Shown piece by piece: positions 2,626 to 15,538 of a stretch of DNA of 42,086 nucleotides. The DNA comes from a virus, in IMG/VR virus record IMGVR_UViG_3300010396_000028, positions 1 to 42,086 of that record; one strand, written 5' to 3'. The notes under the pieces are model-generated. The model had not been told where the DNA came from. It saw only the letters and a program-made list of their open reading frames with translations, and ran no database searches. The first letter of the stretch is position 1. Every line of letters begins with the position of its first letter. A program made the position numbers and the translations under genes.

Positions 2626-2909
2626 CCTGGCTGCGGCTTAGCCTGCGCCGGTGGCGGAGTCTTAGGCTGAGACACAGTAATATATTTAATAAATACCTGG
2701 CTAAGACTCAGCCTGCGTCTTAGATATGTATTTTAATCTGTGCCAGGCTGTGGCTTAGCCTGCGCCTCTGTGTTATCTCTTTCGCATCCCCGCTCTCGCG
2801 CCTGGCGCATTAGAGAGCGGAGCCAACTCCTACTTCGCTTTCCTTCGGGCTCAGTAGGAGCGCGTTTTTGTGGCTGTGTTGGTGCTTTCTCTGAGGCGCG
2901 GGCTAAGCC
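2626..2909. repeat. Iteron cluster: three direct copies and one inverted copy of (CCWGGCT..)GGCTTAGCCTGCGCC, separated by AT-rich spacers
   Basis: R1 2626-2649 and R3 2743-2766 are 22/24 identical. R2 2696-2719 shares the flanks CCTGGCT...GCCTGCG. The inverted copy GGCGCGGGCTAAGCC is at 2895-2909. AT-rich stretches lie at about 2668-2694 and 2722-2738. Confidence 0.7.
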
Positions 2910-2979
2910 TTGTCGGTGGTGTATTTTTAGCTGTCTGTGCCACCGCCTCGCGCGCAGCCGTAAGAGATACCTTCATATA

Positions 2980-2996
2980 AAGGGGGAAAAGTTCTA
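2980..2996 (-). promoter_or_regulatory. Late-gene motif copy 2 (about 485 nt upstream of terL)
   Basis: Exact 17-mer AAGGGGGAAAAGTTCTA on the plus strand. The minus strand reads TGTAGAACTTTTCCCCCTTTATATG. Confidence 0.5.
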
Positions 2997-3406
2997 CAAA
3001 GTTGCAAGTGGCTGTAACTGTTCTGGATAACAATTGTTAAGAATAGAACCTATGTGTTAACATCTCTTAACATTCTACAAAGCTTGTTTATGGGCAAGGG
3101 CGGGAAAATTGTGCGCGCCACCATATAACTCTACCTCGCTCACCACTTTTGCCCCACCCCCTAGGCCCCTTGCAAGGTCCATGCCATGATACAGTGGCAG
3201 GGTAGAGACAGGTGGCTTGGCATAGATCATTATTCGTGCCATGCATGATGCTATGCGGGGAGGGTATGTTGGCATGGGCATGTTGAGAATCATTCTCACC
3301 TCGTCTCACACAACACTACCTGTCGCATATTGCAACACTATCAAAAGCTTTGCTCCTATATAGAGCGCGCCACCGCGACGACAGTGGTGTCTAGGTCGGC
3401 GCTTTT

Positions 3407-3505
3407 GTACAAAAGATCGGCAATGAGTACATATGCCTTGCTTTACAACGTATTGCAGCGATTTTACATGAAACTTTCCTAAACTCGTACAAAAGATCGG
3501 CGATG
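3407..3505 (+). repeat. Two copies of the 19-mer GTACAAAAGATCGGCRATG, 80 bp apart
   Basis: Copies at 3407-3425 and 3487-3505 differ at 1 position. The first is embedded in the 14-nt palindrome CTTTTGTACAAAAG. Confidence 0.6.
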
Positions 3506-3547
3506 GGTTCACCGGTCTTGCTAATAGTTTCGCTGCTTTACACTTGC

Positions 3548-3575
3548 TTGACATCGGCATTACATCTGCTATACT
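3548..3575 (+). promoter_or_regulatory. Early sigma70-type promoter (TTGACA-N16-TATACT)
   Basis: Consensus -35 at 3548-3553 and near-consensus -10 at 3570-3575, facing the first plus-strand genes. A hairpin GCCGAG-TACTT-CTCGGC (3586-3602) follows. Confidence 0.6.
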
Positions 3576-3616
3576 TATTATAACAGCCGAGTACTTCTCG
3601 GCAGGAGGATAGCAAG

Positions 3617-3736
3617 GTGATCTACATCGTAATGACAAAGTGGGACATAAAGCTTACTGCCCTAACTGATCTGTCTGAGGCCCAGCGCGCTGCTAGAGCG
3701 TGTGGTGGCTATATCGTTTTTGTTAAAAACCGCTAA
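3617..3736 (+). CDS. Possible small early ORF (39 aa from GTG 3617, or 34 aa from ATG 3632)
   Basis: AGGAGG lies 7 nt upstream of the GTG. This is the first ORF after the early promoter. It is below the 60-aa cutoff of the track. Confidence 0.3.
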   Translation: MIYIVMTKWDIKLTALTDLSEAQRAARACGGYIVFVKNR

Positions 3737-3766
3737 AAACCGCTAATGAACGCTAATGGAGGTTGT

Positions 3767-4210
3767 ATGAAAAACATTCAACGTACTTCGGATTACGATA
3801 CCAACCTGGATCTTGCTTTTGGAAACCTTGTAATTAATCTCTGCGCTCACGACACCAGCCCTTGTGGGTTGCCTGCTTATATTGAAGTGCAGCTTGGTAA
3901 AGCGCCTAAAGACAAAGGCGCTACCGTGCTTGACCTTGGCAACTACATCTATCGTCGTTTTGGCCTTCGTTACCAAATGACTCCTGAATATTGTGGACGC
4001 GGCAAGAGCACCACGCTTCGTTGGTTTATGTCGTGGGACGATATCAAGCCCATACGCGCCAACATTTTCAAAGCTTGTATGCCTGAGGCTACTGAGCGTT
4101 TGGTTAATTTAGAACACTTTCTACCCGTAACCTTTCGCACATTGATTATTCAAAACCCCGAACGTGGAGTGCGTGCCCCAAGCAATTCGACGCAGGAGAC
4201 ATTGCGATGA
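3767..4210 (+). CDS. Hypothetical early protein
   Basis: ATG 3767 is preceded by GGAGG; the track ORF starts at 3746. Its end overlaps the next ORF start (ATGA). Confidence 0.6.
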   Translation: MKNIQRTSDYDTNLDLAFGNLVINLCAHDTSPCGLPAYIEVQLGKAPKDKGATVLDLGNYIYRRFGLRYQMTPEYCGRGKSTTLRWFMSWDDIKPIRANIFKACMPEATERLVNLEHFLPVTFRTLIIQNPERGVRAPSNSTQETLR

Positions 4211-4489: not shown

Positions 4490-5044
4490 ATGAAAATACT
4501 TACAGACAAAAAGCTCCAGTCTTTAAAACCTTGTGATGAAGGCTATGCTTGGTGGAAGAACTATGTTGGCGGCAAGAAGTCGGCAGATTTATTAGCTACT
4601 CTGCTTGCTGTTAACGAAGTCAATCCTTTGTGGGCGCGTTGGACATTTACACAGCTAATGAATACCAAGCGGCGCTGTGAAATAGCCATATATGCCGCTG
4701 AACAGGTGTTGCCTGTATTTGAGGCTAAATATCCTGGTGATAAACGGCCTCGGATGGCCATAAAGGCAGCGGTGTGTGTTTTAAAGCACAATACAAAAGA
4801 AAATCAAAGTGTCGCCGCCGCCTACTCCGCCGCCGACGCCGCCGCCGACGCCGCCTACGCCGCCGCCGACGCCGCCTACGCCGCCGCCGACGCCGCCTAC
4901 TCCGCCGCCTACTCCGCCTACTCCGACGCCGACGCCGCCGCCGACGCCGCCTACTCCGCCGCCTGCGCCGCCGCCGCCGCCAGAACAAACATGCAAGTGA
5001 AAATCATTAAACAAGCTGCGGCCATATTGAATAGGAGTGAATAA
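4490..5044 (+). CDS. Ala/Asp/Tyr hexapeptide-repeat protein with an Imm5-like (putative immunity protein) core
   Basis: GAGGAGG RBS. The core AAEQVLPVFEAKYPGDKRPRMAIKAA is followed by (AADAAY)n-type repeats. This pattern resembles the AxxCAxxVLPxFE...PxDxRPRxAI family. Confidence 0.65.
   Translation: MKILTDKKLQSLKPCDEGYAWWKNYVGGKKSADLLATLLAVNEVNPLWARWTFTQLMNTKRRCEIAIYAAEQVLPVFEAKYPGDKRPRMAIKAAVCVLKHNTKENQSVAAAYSAADAAADAAYAAADAAYAAADAAYSAAYSAYSDADAAADAAYSAACAAAAARTNMQVKIIKQAAAILNRSE
4811..4982 (+). repeat. In-frame 18-nt (GCCGCCGACGCCGCCTAC-type) coding repeat array
   Basis: Read directly. Encodes the Ala/Asp/Tyr repeats of ORF 4490..5044. Confidence 0.9.
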
Positions 5045-12961: not shown

Positions 12962-13273
12962 ATGAAAAACAAAATGATTGGCAAGAAAGTCATTGTACGG
13001 GCAAATGTGGCCGGTGTTCATGCTGGAATTATCGAAAGTATCGATACCGCTACGCAAACCGTTACGCTCGCAAAGGCATATAGACTGTGGGGCTTTTACA
13101 CCCGCGACAATTCCGGATCTATAAGTGATTTAGCAGCTAATGGTTTGAAGCCTAATGGCGGCCATTCTATCGGTGCCGAATTAAAGTCTGTAATCATCGT
13201 CAATCCGGCAGGCCTGGAACTGGCTGAGATGACCGATGCTGCATATAAATCAGTTCAAGACTGGAAAAACTAA
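12962..13273 (+). CDS. Hypothetical protein (103 aa)
   Basis: ATG 12962 is preceded by GAGGTG; the track ORF starts upstream at 12737 inside the divergent gene. Confidence 0.6.
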   Translation: MKNKMIGKKVIVRANVAGVHAGIIESIDTATQTVTLAKAYRLWGFYTRDNSGSISDLAANGLKPNGGHSIGAELKSVIIVNPAGLELAEMTDAAYKSVQDWKN

Positions 13274-13276
13274 AAC

Positions 13277-13717
13277 ATGAAGGCGCGAAAGTTTTATCGC
13301 GACGGTCTGGAAGAGCACATAGTTGGCCCTGTACGGGTACACTACACGGCTGAAGGTCATGTAGTTGAGAGTTACCGAACAGACAAAGGAAAACGCCGAT
13401 ATTTTGCTACGCTTGCGGGCACACATTGGTGCGCTCACGGCGATTCAATAGCATCGGCTATTTCTGATGCTATTTGGAAAGATCCCAGCAGGCGACCATC
13501 AGCAGAAGCCTTGAAATCGGAAATCATAAAAGCGGGTAAAAAGCGTAAAATTACCCTTAATGAGTTTCGTGTTCTAACTGGTGCGTGTTTGGCTGGGTGT
13601 TGCACAGCTCTAAAACAAGCTGGAAGAGATGATTCTCCTATCACGGCTCACGAAATTAGAGACCTTGTATCAAAAGAATGGGGTGACAAGCTCCTATCTA
13701 TCTTGGGGTGGTTATGA
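13277..13717 (+). CDS. Hypothetical protein (146 aa)
   Basis: ORF ending in an ATGA overlap with the first Gly-X repeat gene. Confidence 0.6.
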   Translation: MKARKFYRDGLEEHIVGPVRVHYTAEGHVVESYRTDKGKRRYFATLAGTHWCAHGDSIASAISDAIWKDPSRRPSAEALKSEIIKAGKKRKITLNEFRVLTGACLAGCCTALKQAGRDDSPITAHEIRDLVSKEWGDKLLSILGWL

Positions 13718-13872
13718 TTGACGGCAGCGGCAACGGCGGCGGCAACGGCAACGGCAACGGCTACGGCTACGGCAGCGGCGACGGCTACGGCAGCGGCAAC
13801 GGCAGCGGCAACGGCAACGGCAACGGCAGCGGCAACGGCAACGGCAACGGCTGGGAAGAGGTAAAGTCATGA
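13714..13872 (+). CDS. (Gly-X)n dipeptide-repeat protein 1 (52 aa)
   Basis: Hand translation: MIDGSGNGGGNGNGNGYGYGSGDGYGSGNGSGNGNGNGSGNGNGNGWEEVKS. ATGA overlaps at both ends. Below the track cutoff. Confidence 0.55.
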   Translation: MIDGSGNGGGNGNGNGYGYGSGDGYGSGNGSGNGNGNGSGNGNGNGWEEVKS

Positions 13873-14150
13873 TTGACGGCGGCGGCAGCGGCAGCGGCAA
13901 CGGCAACGGCAACGGCTACGGCAGCGGCCGCGGCGACGGCAGCGGCGACGGCTACGGCAGCGGCAGCGGCAGCGGCAGCGGCTACGGCGACGGCTATGGC
14001 AGCGGCCGCGGCTACGGCGACGGCAGCGGCAGCGGCTACGGCTACGGCAGCGGCCGCGGCTACGGCGACGGCTACGGCGACGGCTACGGCTACAGCTACG
14101 GCAGCGGCAGCGGCCGCGGCCGCGGCAGCGGCAGCGGCAGCGGCAGCGGC
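13723..14150 (+). repeat. Hexanucleotide (GGC-NNC)n coding repeat arrays (two blocks, 13723-13850 and 13878-14150)
   Basis: Read directly. The units GGCAAC, GGCAGC, GGCTAC, GGCGAC and GGCCGC are each 67-100% GC. Confidence 0.9.
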
Positions 14151-14171
14151 TGGGAAGAGGTAAAGTCATGA
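13869..14171 (+). CDS. (Gly-X)n dipeptide-repeat protein 2 (100 aa)
   Basis: Track ORF. It has the same MIDG head and GWEEVKS tail as the upstream 52-aa ORF. Gly occupies every even position from 4 to 94 except Ser76. Confidence 0.6.
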   Translation: MIDGGGSGSGNGNGNGYGSGRGDGSGDGYGSGSGSGSGYGDGYGSGRGYGDGSGSGYGYGSGRGYGDGYGDGYGYSYGSGSGRGRGSGSGSGSGWEEVKS

Positions 14172-14398
14172 GCAAACAACACAAGCTAGATCACCCGTGT
14201 AAGGACACGTGCTCGGGCTGGGCAGCCGGGGCTGAGTCGAGAGATAAGGTGATAAAGGAGCTGCGAAAAGAGGCTTATAAGATTTTGGAGGCAATAGACT
14301 CGAATGTCGAACTGTGTGCACATATCTTCGAAGCTGCCGATTCATTACGCGAAGCCCTCGCCAAGATCGACGCCTTTGTTGGACAGGAGAATAAATGA
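14168..14398 (+). CDS. Hypothetical protein (76 aa)
   Basis: ATGA overlaps with both neighbours. Confidence 0.55.
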   Translation: MSKQHKLDHPCKDTCSGWAAGAESRDKVIKELRKEAYKILEAIDSNVELCAHIFEAADSLREALAKIDAFVGQENK

Positions 14399-15174
14399 AG
14401 GTCTTTAGATATTCCACTCTAAGTGATGCCCATAAATGCCTCAGATTTTTTGAGCTTAAGCACATTAAGGGCATGGATGATGGCAGTGACAAGAGCGGAG
14501 ATATGGCGTTCGGAACAACCATACACGCAGCCATTCAAGACCTGTTTGAAATTGGCAACGGCACAGATGTTTTTAGCGACCTGTGGGGAGCACAGAAGAA
14601 TGTTGAACTAGAATATAGCCGGTATAAATGGGAAGACCTCCGCGCATTGGGAGAGACGCTTATTAGCATCTTTCGCGATGAACACCAGGATAAGTTTGTT
14701 CCGCAATATTTGGAGAAGAGACTAGAAACACGGTTAGCCCGCACATCGGCAGATGGAGACAACCTTTTACAGTTTAATTACCACGGCACTGTAGATTTTC
14801 TTGGAACATTTAACGGCATACCTAGCGTGGTTGATTGGAAGACAAGCGCAATGCCTTATGATCGGTTCAAAATACAGTGCAACGAGCAGATGTATGGCTA
14901 TGCTAATTTAGCAAAACATTGCCTTGGTTTCGACGCACAACAGGTTGTTTATGCTGTGGCGATTAAGGACATGAAAAACCCTAAATGGCAATTCCGAACC
15001 GCGCCACTGTCAGACAAAATTGTTCAGTCTAAAATCGATAATATTTTCGATACAGCAATGAGCTTGCAGCAAGGCCCATACTACAAAAACCCTAACCAAT
15101 GCGTGGTTGGGAAACGCGTATGTCCCTTCTTCAACACTTGTCATGGAGGTGACAGTGGTAAAGAAGGCGCTTGA
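14395..15174 (+). CDS. PD-(D/E)XK exonuclease, Cas4/RecB-like
   Basis: GTVDF...VVDWKTS nuclease core. N-terminal Cys plus the C-terminal cluster C-x7-C-x5-C (QCVVGKRVCPFFNTC), as in Cas4-type Fe-S nucleases. Confidence 0.75.
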   Translation: MKVFRYSTLSDAHKCLRFFELKHIKGMDDGSDKSGDMAFGTTIHAAIQDLFEIGNGTDVFSDLWGAQKNVELEYSRYKWEDLRALGETLISIFRDEHQDKFVPQYLEKRLETRLARTSADGDNLLQFNYHGTVDFLGTFNGIPSVVDWKTSAMPYDRFKIQCNEQMYGYANLAKHCLGFDAQQVVYAVAIKDMKNPKWQFRTAPLSDKIVQSKIDNIFDTAMSLQQGPYYKNPNQCVVGKRVCPFFNTCHGGDSGKEGA

Positions 15175-15538
15175 TGCTGTGGGATTTGCCATTGCGTCTC
15201 TTCGCCGGGCGTCTTACCGATGGCCGGCACGCAGTCAGGTACAAGCTGAGGCCCGTGTGTCTCGGGGTGTATACAAGTGCGCCAGCTGTTTGGGGCAATT
15301 CAGAAGGAAAGAGGTGCAGGTGGATCACATCTCTCCTGTTGTGCCTGTGTCGGGTTGGGATAGTTTCGATGGTTTCATAAATAGATTGTTGTGCGGGCCA
15401 GAACAACTACAGGTGCTGTGTAAACCCTGTCATAAAATTAAGAGTGTGGAGGAGAACCGTGTCAGAAGAGAAAACAAACAGCTTAGTGAAGCAGCTCAAG
15501 GAAATGGTGTTCGAAGTAAAACAAAGAGAAGCGGCTAG
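15143..15538 (+). CDS. HNH endonuclease
   Basis: YKCASC...QVDHISPV...LQVLCKPCHKIK (CxxC, His-Asn-His, CxxC). The start is ATG 15143 or GTG 15155, which follows GGAGG. Confidence 0.8.
   Translation: MEVTVVKKALDAVGFAIASLRRASYRWPARSQVQAEARVSRGVYKCASCLGQFRRKEVQVDHISPVVPVSGWDSFDGFINRLLCGPEQLQVLCKPCHKIKSVEENRVRRENKQLSEAAQGNGVRSKTKRSG

Follow-up and report, generated by a model that had tools for sequence, protein, structure and literature searches.

A predicted disordered, acidic Gly-X arm in a widespread, uncharacterised phage module with DUF6948 and p146

The analysis reported here concerns two adjacent genes for strict Gly-X dipeptide-repeat (GX) proteins in a stretch of viral DNA of 42,086 nt (IMG/VR record IMGVR_UViG_3300010396_000028; the whole stretch is called the window, and both our coordinates and those of a first-pass annotation of the same DNA refer to it unless a locus is named). 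We find that DUF6948, a GX tract and a protein of 146 aa (p146) make up a new, widespread and uncharacterised phage module, and sequence comparison indicates that the two GX open reading frames (ORFs) of the window are a split-off and duplicated low-complexity arm of that module. For the polymer itself we favour, at a probability of about 0.55, the reading that it acts within the module as a disordered, multivalent, acidic and aromatic arm that engages basic partners.

The Gly-X genes and their conserved partners

The first GX gene (13714..13872, + strand) begins with ATG and encodes 52 aa of the form MIDG-(Gly-X)21-GWEEVKS, its full translation being MIDGSGNGGGNGNGNGYGYGSGDGYGSGNGSGNGNGNGSGNGNGNGWEEVKS; the second (13869..14171, + strand) encodes 100 aa of the form MIDG-(Gly-X)45-GWEEVKS. 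Direct reading of the sequence and its translations bears out the first-pass description of two tandem ORFs that open with MIDG and close with GWEEVKS, with Gly at each even position from 4 to 46 in the shorter ORF and from 4 to 94 in the longer, where Ser76 is the sole exception, and with X limited to N, S, Y, D and G in the former, R being added in the latter, whose five Arg residues all lie in GRG contexts. The tracts of 21 and 45 units have isoelectric points (pI) of 4.1 and 4.5, each protein has a net charge of -3, and the Gly codon is GGC in 69/69 cases. The chain of ATGA stop/start overlaps is also intact: the first GX gene starts within the stop of p146 (13717/13714), the second is overlapped at both ends (13872/13869 and 14171/14168), and a further overlap follows at 14398/14395, each gene lying in the -1 frame relative to the preceding one. 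A collagen-type (Gly-X-Y)n repeat is ruled out, as had been proposed, since Gly occupies every second and not every third residue and the DNA period is 6 nt. Neither GX ORF, on direct reading, contains the GG.G.D of the RTX nonapeptide motif GGxGxDxUx. A TrAA12-like Pfam match (PF22807), which scored 19.9 and 17.3 bits (cut-off 30.9) and covered a Gly-rich patch only, was dismissed as low-complexity noise. For the exact 100-aa protein there is no called gene on record.

Immediately ahead of the GX genes stands p146 (13277..13717, + strand; basic, pI 9.4), which has the motif HG...TGxCxxG and no match among solved structures, and ahead of p146 stands a DUF6948 gene (12962..13273, + strand; 103 aa, basic, pI 9.3; Pfam PF22253, E 1.5e-10), which the first-pass annotation had left unmentioned and which proves to be the constant upstream partner of GX tracts. 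The window thus holds all three parts of the early-gene module: a DUF6948 gene directly upstream on the same strand, the p146 core HG...TGxCxxG...[YW]G, and an acidic tract of at least 7 units. GenBank phages gave no match to the region by megablast or to the PD-(D/E)XK protein encoded further downstream by tblastn, and the window phage has no close sequenced relative in GenBank. Metagenomes, on the other hand, contain hundreds of p146 homologues, and in almost every related contig 1-8 tandem Gly-X ORFs lie beside p146. All loci with a p146 of at least 43% identity and with upstream sequence have an adjacent DUF6948 gene and 1-8 GX ORFs; neither accompanies the more remote p146-core proteins (about 32% identity). 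When DUF6948 alone served as the seed, 54 loci of roughly 10 kb each were obtained, 46 of them with enough downstream sequence, and a same-strand GX tract lay just downstream of DUF6948 in 44 of these 46 (33/33 close loci, and 11/13 distant loci at 30-44% identity), with a GX tract elsewhere in only 4/54.

In the distant group the gene after DUF6948 encodes a single protein that consists of an N-terminal helix (MEE.I..FL), a GX tract of 8-50 units and a p146-homologous domain. Proteins with this helix, GX tract and p146 domain occur in gut phages, and we base the full-length homology of the fused protein to p146 on the BLASTP match between window p146 and the MT835900.1 protein (E 1e-6), not on half-domain alignments; the 'AHG' half gave P = 4.8e-4 over 23 columns only, and the 'GAC' N-domains of GX proteins were rejected as homologues of the C-terminal half of p146 (hhalign probability 1.4%). 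Fused GX-p146 proteins are also found within the environmental clade (loci L022 and L060), and where the parts are separate their order varies, GX ORFs lying between DUF6948 and p146 in, for example, L006, L021 and L075 and after p146 in the window. In L037 and L038, DUF6948 precedes GX proteins that carry other domains. The notion that the GX ORFs are a family of tandem genes in their own right does not stand up; they are a detached form of the N-terminal arm that is fused to p146 elsewhere. Nor does the recombination-replication operon, in which they had been placed, provide a lasting context, since the PD-(D/E)XK, Rad52 and PolA genes are absent from the related loci and only DUF6948 and p146 are common to them. 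None of PADLOC, PHROGs and NCBIfam has a family that covers GX, p146, DUF6948 or the fused protein, and the family was not described in the literature that we searched on DUF6948, DUF7666, TIGR02996, GX peptides and Gly-rich low-complexity proteins of phages.

The peptide pattern persists among relatives while the DNA beneath it turns over. In a census of 56 non-redundant loci with 143 tracts, the dominant Gly codon was GGC in 37 loci, GGT in 8, GGG in 4 and GGA in 1 (mixed in 6), and Ser was encoded by TCN in 35 loci, by AGY in 11 and by both in 4, two codon families that cannot be interconverted by a single substitution; X was nevertheless Ser in 28%, Tyr in 22% and Asp in 18% of cases over the 143 tracts, with Ala at 4% and Lys and Arg together at 3%. 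Peptides read from the antisense strand or from shifted frames vary with the codons and are not conserved. Since the same Gly-X peptide is made from different codons, the Gly-X frame is what is selected and the DNA repeat is only its vehicle; the frame chosen in the first-pass annotation is therefore the conserved one, and the codon turnover with the peptide retained, together with the ATGA chain, shows the two ORFs to be real genes, coupled in translation, that encode strict Gly-X proteins. A role as a tRNA-Gly sponge or codon-specific timer was set aside because the dominant Gly codon varies among phages.

Hexanucleotide array, coupling cassettes and gene context

Both GX genes overlie a (GGC-NNC)n hexanucleotide array (13721..14150, no strand assigned), which Tandem Repeats Finder reports as a single array of period 6 with 71.8 copies and a score of 328, a repeat signal far beyond chance. 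That the repeat number shifts by slippage, as had been suggested, is seen in closely related sequences: L017 and L018, from different samples, have identical flanks, a single 60-nt (10-unit) indel in the tract being all that sets them apart, and P0014 has ~35 units where a relative in MT835900.1 has 6, the adjoining domain being 97.6% identical. Within each array one codon dominates, as homogenisation by slippage predicts. Moreover, since the register of the DNA repeat is that of the codons, slippage and recombination leave Gly-X in frame, and do so even where the two ORFs are offset by -1. The point is illustrated by another assembly of the window phage (ERZ27256653, 41,867 bp), which over 600 nt departs from the window only in a 101-nt deletion (about 13788-13888) whose ends fall in identical, in-register units of ORF1 and ORF2; the junction is lost, and a merged, in-frame GX ORF of 118 aa, which was called by the gene caller there, takes the place of two. 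This one-gene state may be either a true polymorphism with the two-gene state or an assembly collapse, and a third contig of the window phage stops at the repeat (the other assemblies are L095 and L096). We conclude that hexamer slippage accounts for the evolution of tract length, and recombination, either between repeats or between junction cassettes of 24-36 nt, for that of gene number. In the multi-copy arrays of L016 (1814-2351) and L023 (4427-5776) some copies change among the three repeat frames without stops, for example from G-D/F/A to G-T/S/P to G-R/V, which is a sign either that redundant copies are decaying or that short-read assembly has gone wrong.

The first-pass annotation took the shared ends of the two proteins as features of the proteins themselves, a view that fits the head and not the tail. 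The head I-D-G is retained in relatives through synonymous changes (ATT/ATC, GAC/GAT, GGC/GGT/GGA) and appears to be a real peptide feature. The tail, by contrast, coincides with a junction cassette, GGCTGGGAAGAGGTAAAGTCATGA (13849..13872, + strand), which combines GWEEVKS with a Shine-Dalgarno (SD) sequence, GAGGT, at 13858-13862 and an ATG at 13869 that overlaps the TGA stop; a second, identical cassette (14148..14171, + strand; SD at 14157-14161) couples GX gene 2 to a gene of 76 aa. The tail DNA reads GGC TGG GAA GAG GTA AAG TCA TGA, GAGGT being placed 6 nt ahead of the next ATG (13869 and 14168, respectively), so that the codons for E-V are the SD sequence and the last codon overlaps the next start. 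Given an SD sequence and an overlapping start of the next cistron within the tail, translation of each unit would be coupled to that of the next. Among the GX ORFs of relatives, 38 of 48 end in ATGA or GTGA, with an SD-like motif in 36 of these 38, and their tails fall into two classes, W-x-E-V-x-S and G-V-[M/L/C]-x, both of which encode GAGGTG, GGAGTG or GGGGTG. Considering that many p146 homologues close with the same LGWEEVKS or LGWEEVIS cassette and that the tail is often missing from GX ORFs without an overlapping downstream gene (L003, L017/L018, L028), the tail is mainly a coupling signal and recombination cassette; in L001 the junction forms a 36-nt direct repeat on both sides of the GX gene. 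Joining of p146 to GX by frameshift or read-through was rejected, there being no conserved slippery site at the junctions and an Ala/Thr frame past the TGA.

Downstream, the coupled gene of 76 aa (14168..14398, + strand) belongs to no known family and is not conserved beside GX in relatives; it is context and lies outside the module. It is followed by a PD-(D/E)XK or Cas4-like nuclease gene (14395-15174) and then by genes for HNH, Rad52 and family-A DNA polymerase proteins. The longest HNH ORF (15107-15538) shares 68 nt with the 3' end of the PD-(D/E)XK gene, and the true HNH start is probably further downstream.

Two further low-complexity ORFs deserve mention. At 4490-5044 (+ strand) the window has an ORF of 184 aa with an Ala/Tyr/Asp/Ser-rich tract (AAYSAADAAADAAYAAADAAY..., repeat at 4813-4981), and a similar tract occurs at 4836-5642 of L003. 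The antisense of this tract reads as poly-Gly/Val, and the poly-Gly fibre domains that had been noted elsewhere in the genome may be wrong-strand readings. In L021, about 270 nt upstream of the DUF6948 gene, an ORF of 84 aa (2946-3200) consists of strict (Gly-His/Gln)n repeats; it is possibly a further gene of the dipeptide-repeat kind, or else an artefact of reading another frame.

The basic partners and the proposed arm

p146 has 281 homologues by sequence search, and the family has a median pI of 9.2. Its AlphaFold2 (AF2) model, with a mean confidence score (pLDDT) of 91, comprises a five-strand beta-meander and six helices; comparison with the PDB gave no fold match (best E 0.2), sequence profiles found no solved structure either, and in a viral structure library only uncharacterised phage models were matched. 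Over three clades the invariant residues are H54-G55, A61, K68, T101-G102-x-C104-x-x-G107 and G136, and judging by these the His and Cys residues could form a Cys/His active site (a catalytic dyad) or a metal (Zn) site. Proteins of the window clade also have Cys52 and Cys108. An exhaustive profile search with p146 returned 102 cluster representatives, many of them with BspA-type leucine-rich repeats (LRRs) N-terminal to the core. The long N-terminal extensions of distant homologues were considered as GX tracts and rejected as such, only 2 of 71 being so and many others being BspA-type LRRs. Since either an LRR solenoid or a GX tract can stand ahead of the p146 core, the GX tract holds the architectural position of a binding solenoid.

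DUF6948, the other partner, is a small basic protein (about 100 aa) of a very large family, for which public data contain at least 6,358 sequence clusters. Its N-terminus weakly resembles the Sm1 motif, and it may be a small Sm-like barrel.

In Riemerella phage vB_RanS_CRP6 (L040, positions 2722-3018 and 3165-3773), a protein auto-annotated as 'ribonuclease inhibitor' is really an LRR protein with a p146 core. Two genes upstream of it, a protein of 98 aa ends in DDDDLPF, an SSB-like acidic tip, and the block lies between the genes for Erf and YqaJ on one side and that for a replicative helicase on the other, with an SSB-like protein also encoded there.

The GX proteins themselves are of 26-134 aa, with about 44% Gly and about 12% aromatic residues, and nearly all of 48 are acidic (pI about 4.1) with a net charge of -3 to -15. 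AF2 run with an alignment on the 100-aa protein gave a pLDDT of 37 and no secondary structure, and the GX proteins are predicted to be intrinsically disordered, acidic Gly-X polymers in which X is mainly Ser, Tyr, Asp and Asn. Length and gene number vary freely; the pattern, the acidity and the aromatic content do not. It is from this combination, and from the basic nature of the conserved partners, that we infer a multivalent arm. In particular, we suggest that the polymer would be a flexible, negatively charged arm studded with aromatics and offering many binding sites, whose count would be set by the repeat number. Such an arm may bind the basic surfaces of DUF6948 and p146, and possibly those of host nucleic-acid-binding proteins too, and by mimicking nucleic acid it could tune or autoinhibit a basic core in the manner of the Hfq and SSB tails. 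A multi-site ring together with a repeat polymer is a standard recipe for a mixed-charge condensate, and if DUF6948 is oligomeric the GX polymer would cross-link it into such a condensate (a coacervate). The wider proposal that DUF6948, the GX polymer and p146 constitute an unrecognised, widespread phage system that, inside infected cells, would combine an oligomeric small basic barrel with an acidic polymer of genetically tunable length into a mixed-charge condensate or scaffold, or else into a nucleic-acid-mimicking decoy, with the His/Cys domain of p146 or the other fused domains as cargo or effector, is put forward tentatively, and we regard it as doubtful.

Several points weigh against the arm reading. 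The mode of action is drawn from composition, charge complementarity and gene linkage, and a low AF2 confidence speaks weakly for disorder. The Sm hints in DUF6948 are weak (LSM14 at E 1.7e-4, below cut-off, in 2/12 members; Sm protein F at E 0.56). No single-chain fusion of DUF6948 to GX was found in the closest 120 of at least 6,358, all of which stand alone at 96-129 aa; the GX arm is thus physically tied to p146 and to other domains and not to DUF6948. The p146 of the window, for its part, has no arm of its own, and how it would meet the free GX polymers is left unexplained by the model. GX tracts also occur on proteins without DUF6948 nearby, as in L039, and the arrays of L016 and L023 switch frame internally. 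Finally, short-read assembly, a procedure that can collapse repeats, is the source of the tract lengths and copy numbers.

Since L039, the only locus of the DUF7666/TIGR02996 type that we examined, has no adjacent DUF6948 (its upstream gene was considered as a DUF6948 gene and ruled out), use of the GX tract extends beyond the present module. Small metagenomic proteins carry a (G-[Y/S/D])n tract fused to DUF7666 (P0008, P0030) or to a TIGR02996-like, ADWLEE-type N-domain (P0001, P0007, P0020, P0037, P0046).

Alternative explanations, known systems and significance

The leading idea of the first-pass annotation was a polymer that condenses by itself in the FUS-type or prion-like manner, with Tyr, Trp and Phe as stickers and Gly and Ser as spacers, and so concentrates replication and recombination proteins. 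The G/S/Y/N composition, in which [G/S]Y[G/S] triplets are frequent and aromatics make up about 12%, the predicted disorder of the GX protein, and a variability in length and number that fits a case where the count of binding sites alone matters are all in its favour, as are the self-assembly of synthetic GYGYGYG, SYSYSYS and NYNYNYN peptides (PMC8163036) and the phase separation of a Gly-rich tick protein (PMC11794139). We consider it unlikely, however, given that the uniform negative charge (pI about 4.1; Asp 18% of X) opposes self-association, that close linkage to two basic proteins points to assembly with partners, and that the recombination genes it would serve are not conserved neighbours. 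Acidic and aromatic side chains that alternate on a flexible backbone might instead act on the host, as a mimic of single-stranded DNA or RNA that occupies host nucleases, SSB-interacting proteins or defence sensors in the service of anti-defence or takeover. The early region by DNA-metabolism genes, both in the window and in Riemerella phage CRP6, would suit such a function, as would the position of the p146 core behind LRRs, a typical target-binding module, in other phages, and a fast evolution in keeping with an arms race. The DNA mimics Ocr and ArdA are folded, though, neither PADLOC nor PHROGs gave a match, no host target was identified, and the strongest linkage is to the phage's own DUF6948 and p146, not to a host system; we therefore hold a host-directed mimic to be distinctly unlikely.

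The conserved ends and tandem arrangement of several small ORFs beside a protein with invariant H54 and C104 could also describe precursors of ribosomally synthesised and post-translationally modified peptides (RiPPs) or microcins, Gly-rich substrates that p146 would convert into a bioactive product, and the L002 and L016 lineages, rich in Cys, Ser and Trp, recall microcin B17. Yet only MID precedes the tract, which leaves no leader peptide, the lengths run from 26 to 134 aa, many phages have the tract as an N-terminal fusion to p146, and p146 matches no known enzyme fold or family. Library scans of the neighbours found no YcaO, radical-SAM, protease/peptidase or ABC/exporter matches, in agreement with the first-pass statement that no maturation machinery is recognisable next to the GX ORFs, and we judge a RiPP origin very improbable. 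Scarcely any weight can be given to a neutral or selfish microsatellite that grew within a coupled junction and whose peptides are tolerated by-products of an open frame: hypervariability, the openness of all frames, the frame switches in L016 and L023, a tail that is a ribosome-binding-site cassette, and GGC at 69/69 Gly codons of the window, which points to recent homogenisation, would all be expected of it, but the array is kept in 44/46 DUF6948 loci, down to 30% identity, the acidic Gly-X (S/Y/D) pattern is rebuilt from different codons across lineages, the tract is fused in frame to p146 in many phages and the I-D-G head is kept synonymously. The signs that would favour a microsatellite, namely many array-less genomes with DUF6948 and p146 intact or equal frame frequencies, were not seen among the loci. 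Gly-rich tracts beside folded domains impede unfoldases, as in the EBNA1 Gly-Ala repeat, NF-kB p105 and Caulobacter DnaX, and a slippery tract that stalls or evades ClpXP or Lon might shield a fused p146, for which the N-terminal position is apt, or soak up AAA+ proteases when free; considering that pore loops would find a good grip on the bulky Tyr, Trp or Phe that often takes the X position, and that the obligate DUF6948 partner and the acidity would be left unexplained, it is the least probable of the readings considered.

We return to the arm reading with the question of what it resembles. The fibroin heavy chain of Bombyx mori (GAGAGS / GAGAGY) has long runs of alternate Gly with X including Ser and Tyr, and alternate Gly over long runs is equally seen at positions 4-46 and 4-94 of the window proteins. 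Fibroin, however, is a huge, uncharged, secreted protein with X mostly Ala and with beta-sheet crystallites, whereas the phage proteins are acidic, of 26-134 aa, with X being Ser, Tyr or Asp (Ala 4%), and are predicted to be disordered and cytoplasmic, the MID ahead of the tract leaving no room for a signal peptide. Domains of the FUS/hnRNP type share the G/S/Y/N-rich composition, the repeated [G/S]Y[G/S], the evenly spaced aromatics and, with the 100-aa copy, Arg in GRG contexts; the GX proteins differ from them in being strongly negative (-3 to -15), of strict period 2, free of Gln and tied to basic partners. The C9orf72 poly-GA, poly-GR and poly-GP products likewise arise from a hexanucleotide repeat with several open frames that yields Gly-X polymers (PMC10637751), but they are pathological and made by non-canonical translation, unlike the one phage frame with a start, a ribosome-binding site and a stop, which is conserved under selection.

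Comparison can also be made with bacterial and phage proteins in which a disordered or repeat segment accompanies a core domain. In Escherichia coli SSB a Gly-rich disordered segment, acidic and aromatic, meets basic nucleic-acid-binding surfaces (bioRxiv 10.1101/2022.01.17.476650), although its linker has no dipeptide repeat, shares a chain with the OB fold and ends in a tip that is a defined motif, DDDIPF. The nearest precedents to have been worked out are the tails of Hfq: its acidic C-terminal domain, which in E. coli bears an acidic tip, mimics nucleic acid on the basic Sm core (PMC5606850), and Acinetobacter baumannii Hfq needs redundant GGFGGQ repeats for function (PMC11617691). Hfq and the phage module thus have in common the pairing of a small basic protein (a candidate barrel in the phages) with a disordered, Gly-rich, acidic and aromatic repeat; they differ in that the phage repeat is a strict Gly-X dipeptide placed on a separate gene or fused to p146 and not on the barrel, whereas the Hfq tail belongs to the core's own chain (no GX tract was found on the closest 120 of at least 6,358 DUF6948 proteins). 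The LRR-p146 proteins of Riemerella phages CRP5 and CRP6 (WIL01335.1) have the same C-terminal core, HG...TGACxxGC...YGW, behind variable N-terminal repeats in an early DNA-metabolism region, but with a folded LRR solenoid instead of disordered GX and with no accompanying DUF6948 gene. Taken together, the GX component is akin in kind to disordered Gly-rich tails and stands apart from them by its strict dipeptide periodicity, its layout either in trans or over three proteins and its self-renewing genetic architecture.

As to what these findings mean, gene callers and annotators tend to miss or mis-frame GX ORFs, and the loci are prone to breaks and collapses in short-read assembly. With at least 6,358 DUF6948 clusters, and GX after almost every sampled copy, the module represents a large uncharacterised part of phage biology and is no oddity of a single genome. 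The repeated replacement of the DNA repeat, while the Gly-X pattern with Ser, Tyr and Asp and its acidity persist, makes a clean natural case in which selection acts on how a disordered protein is composed and patterned and not on its precise sequence, and the variation in tract length, in gene number and between fused and split forms amounts to a natural allelic series. Should the polymer prove to be a condensate scaffold or a nucleic-acid mimic, the biology of low-complexity domains, to date largely that of eukaryotes, would enter phage infection, and synthetic biology would gain a compact and tunable part. If the proposed system is real, these would be the first natural, selected dipeptide-repeat proteins, made from self-renewing hexanucleotide arrays, to be found at work in a virus of bacteria.

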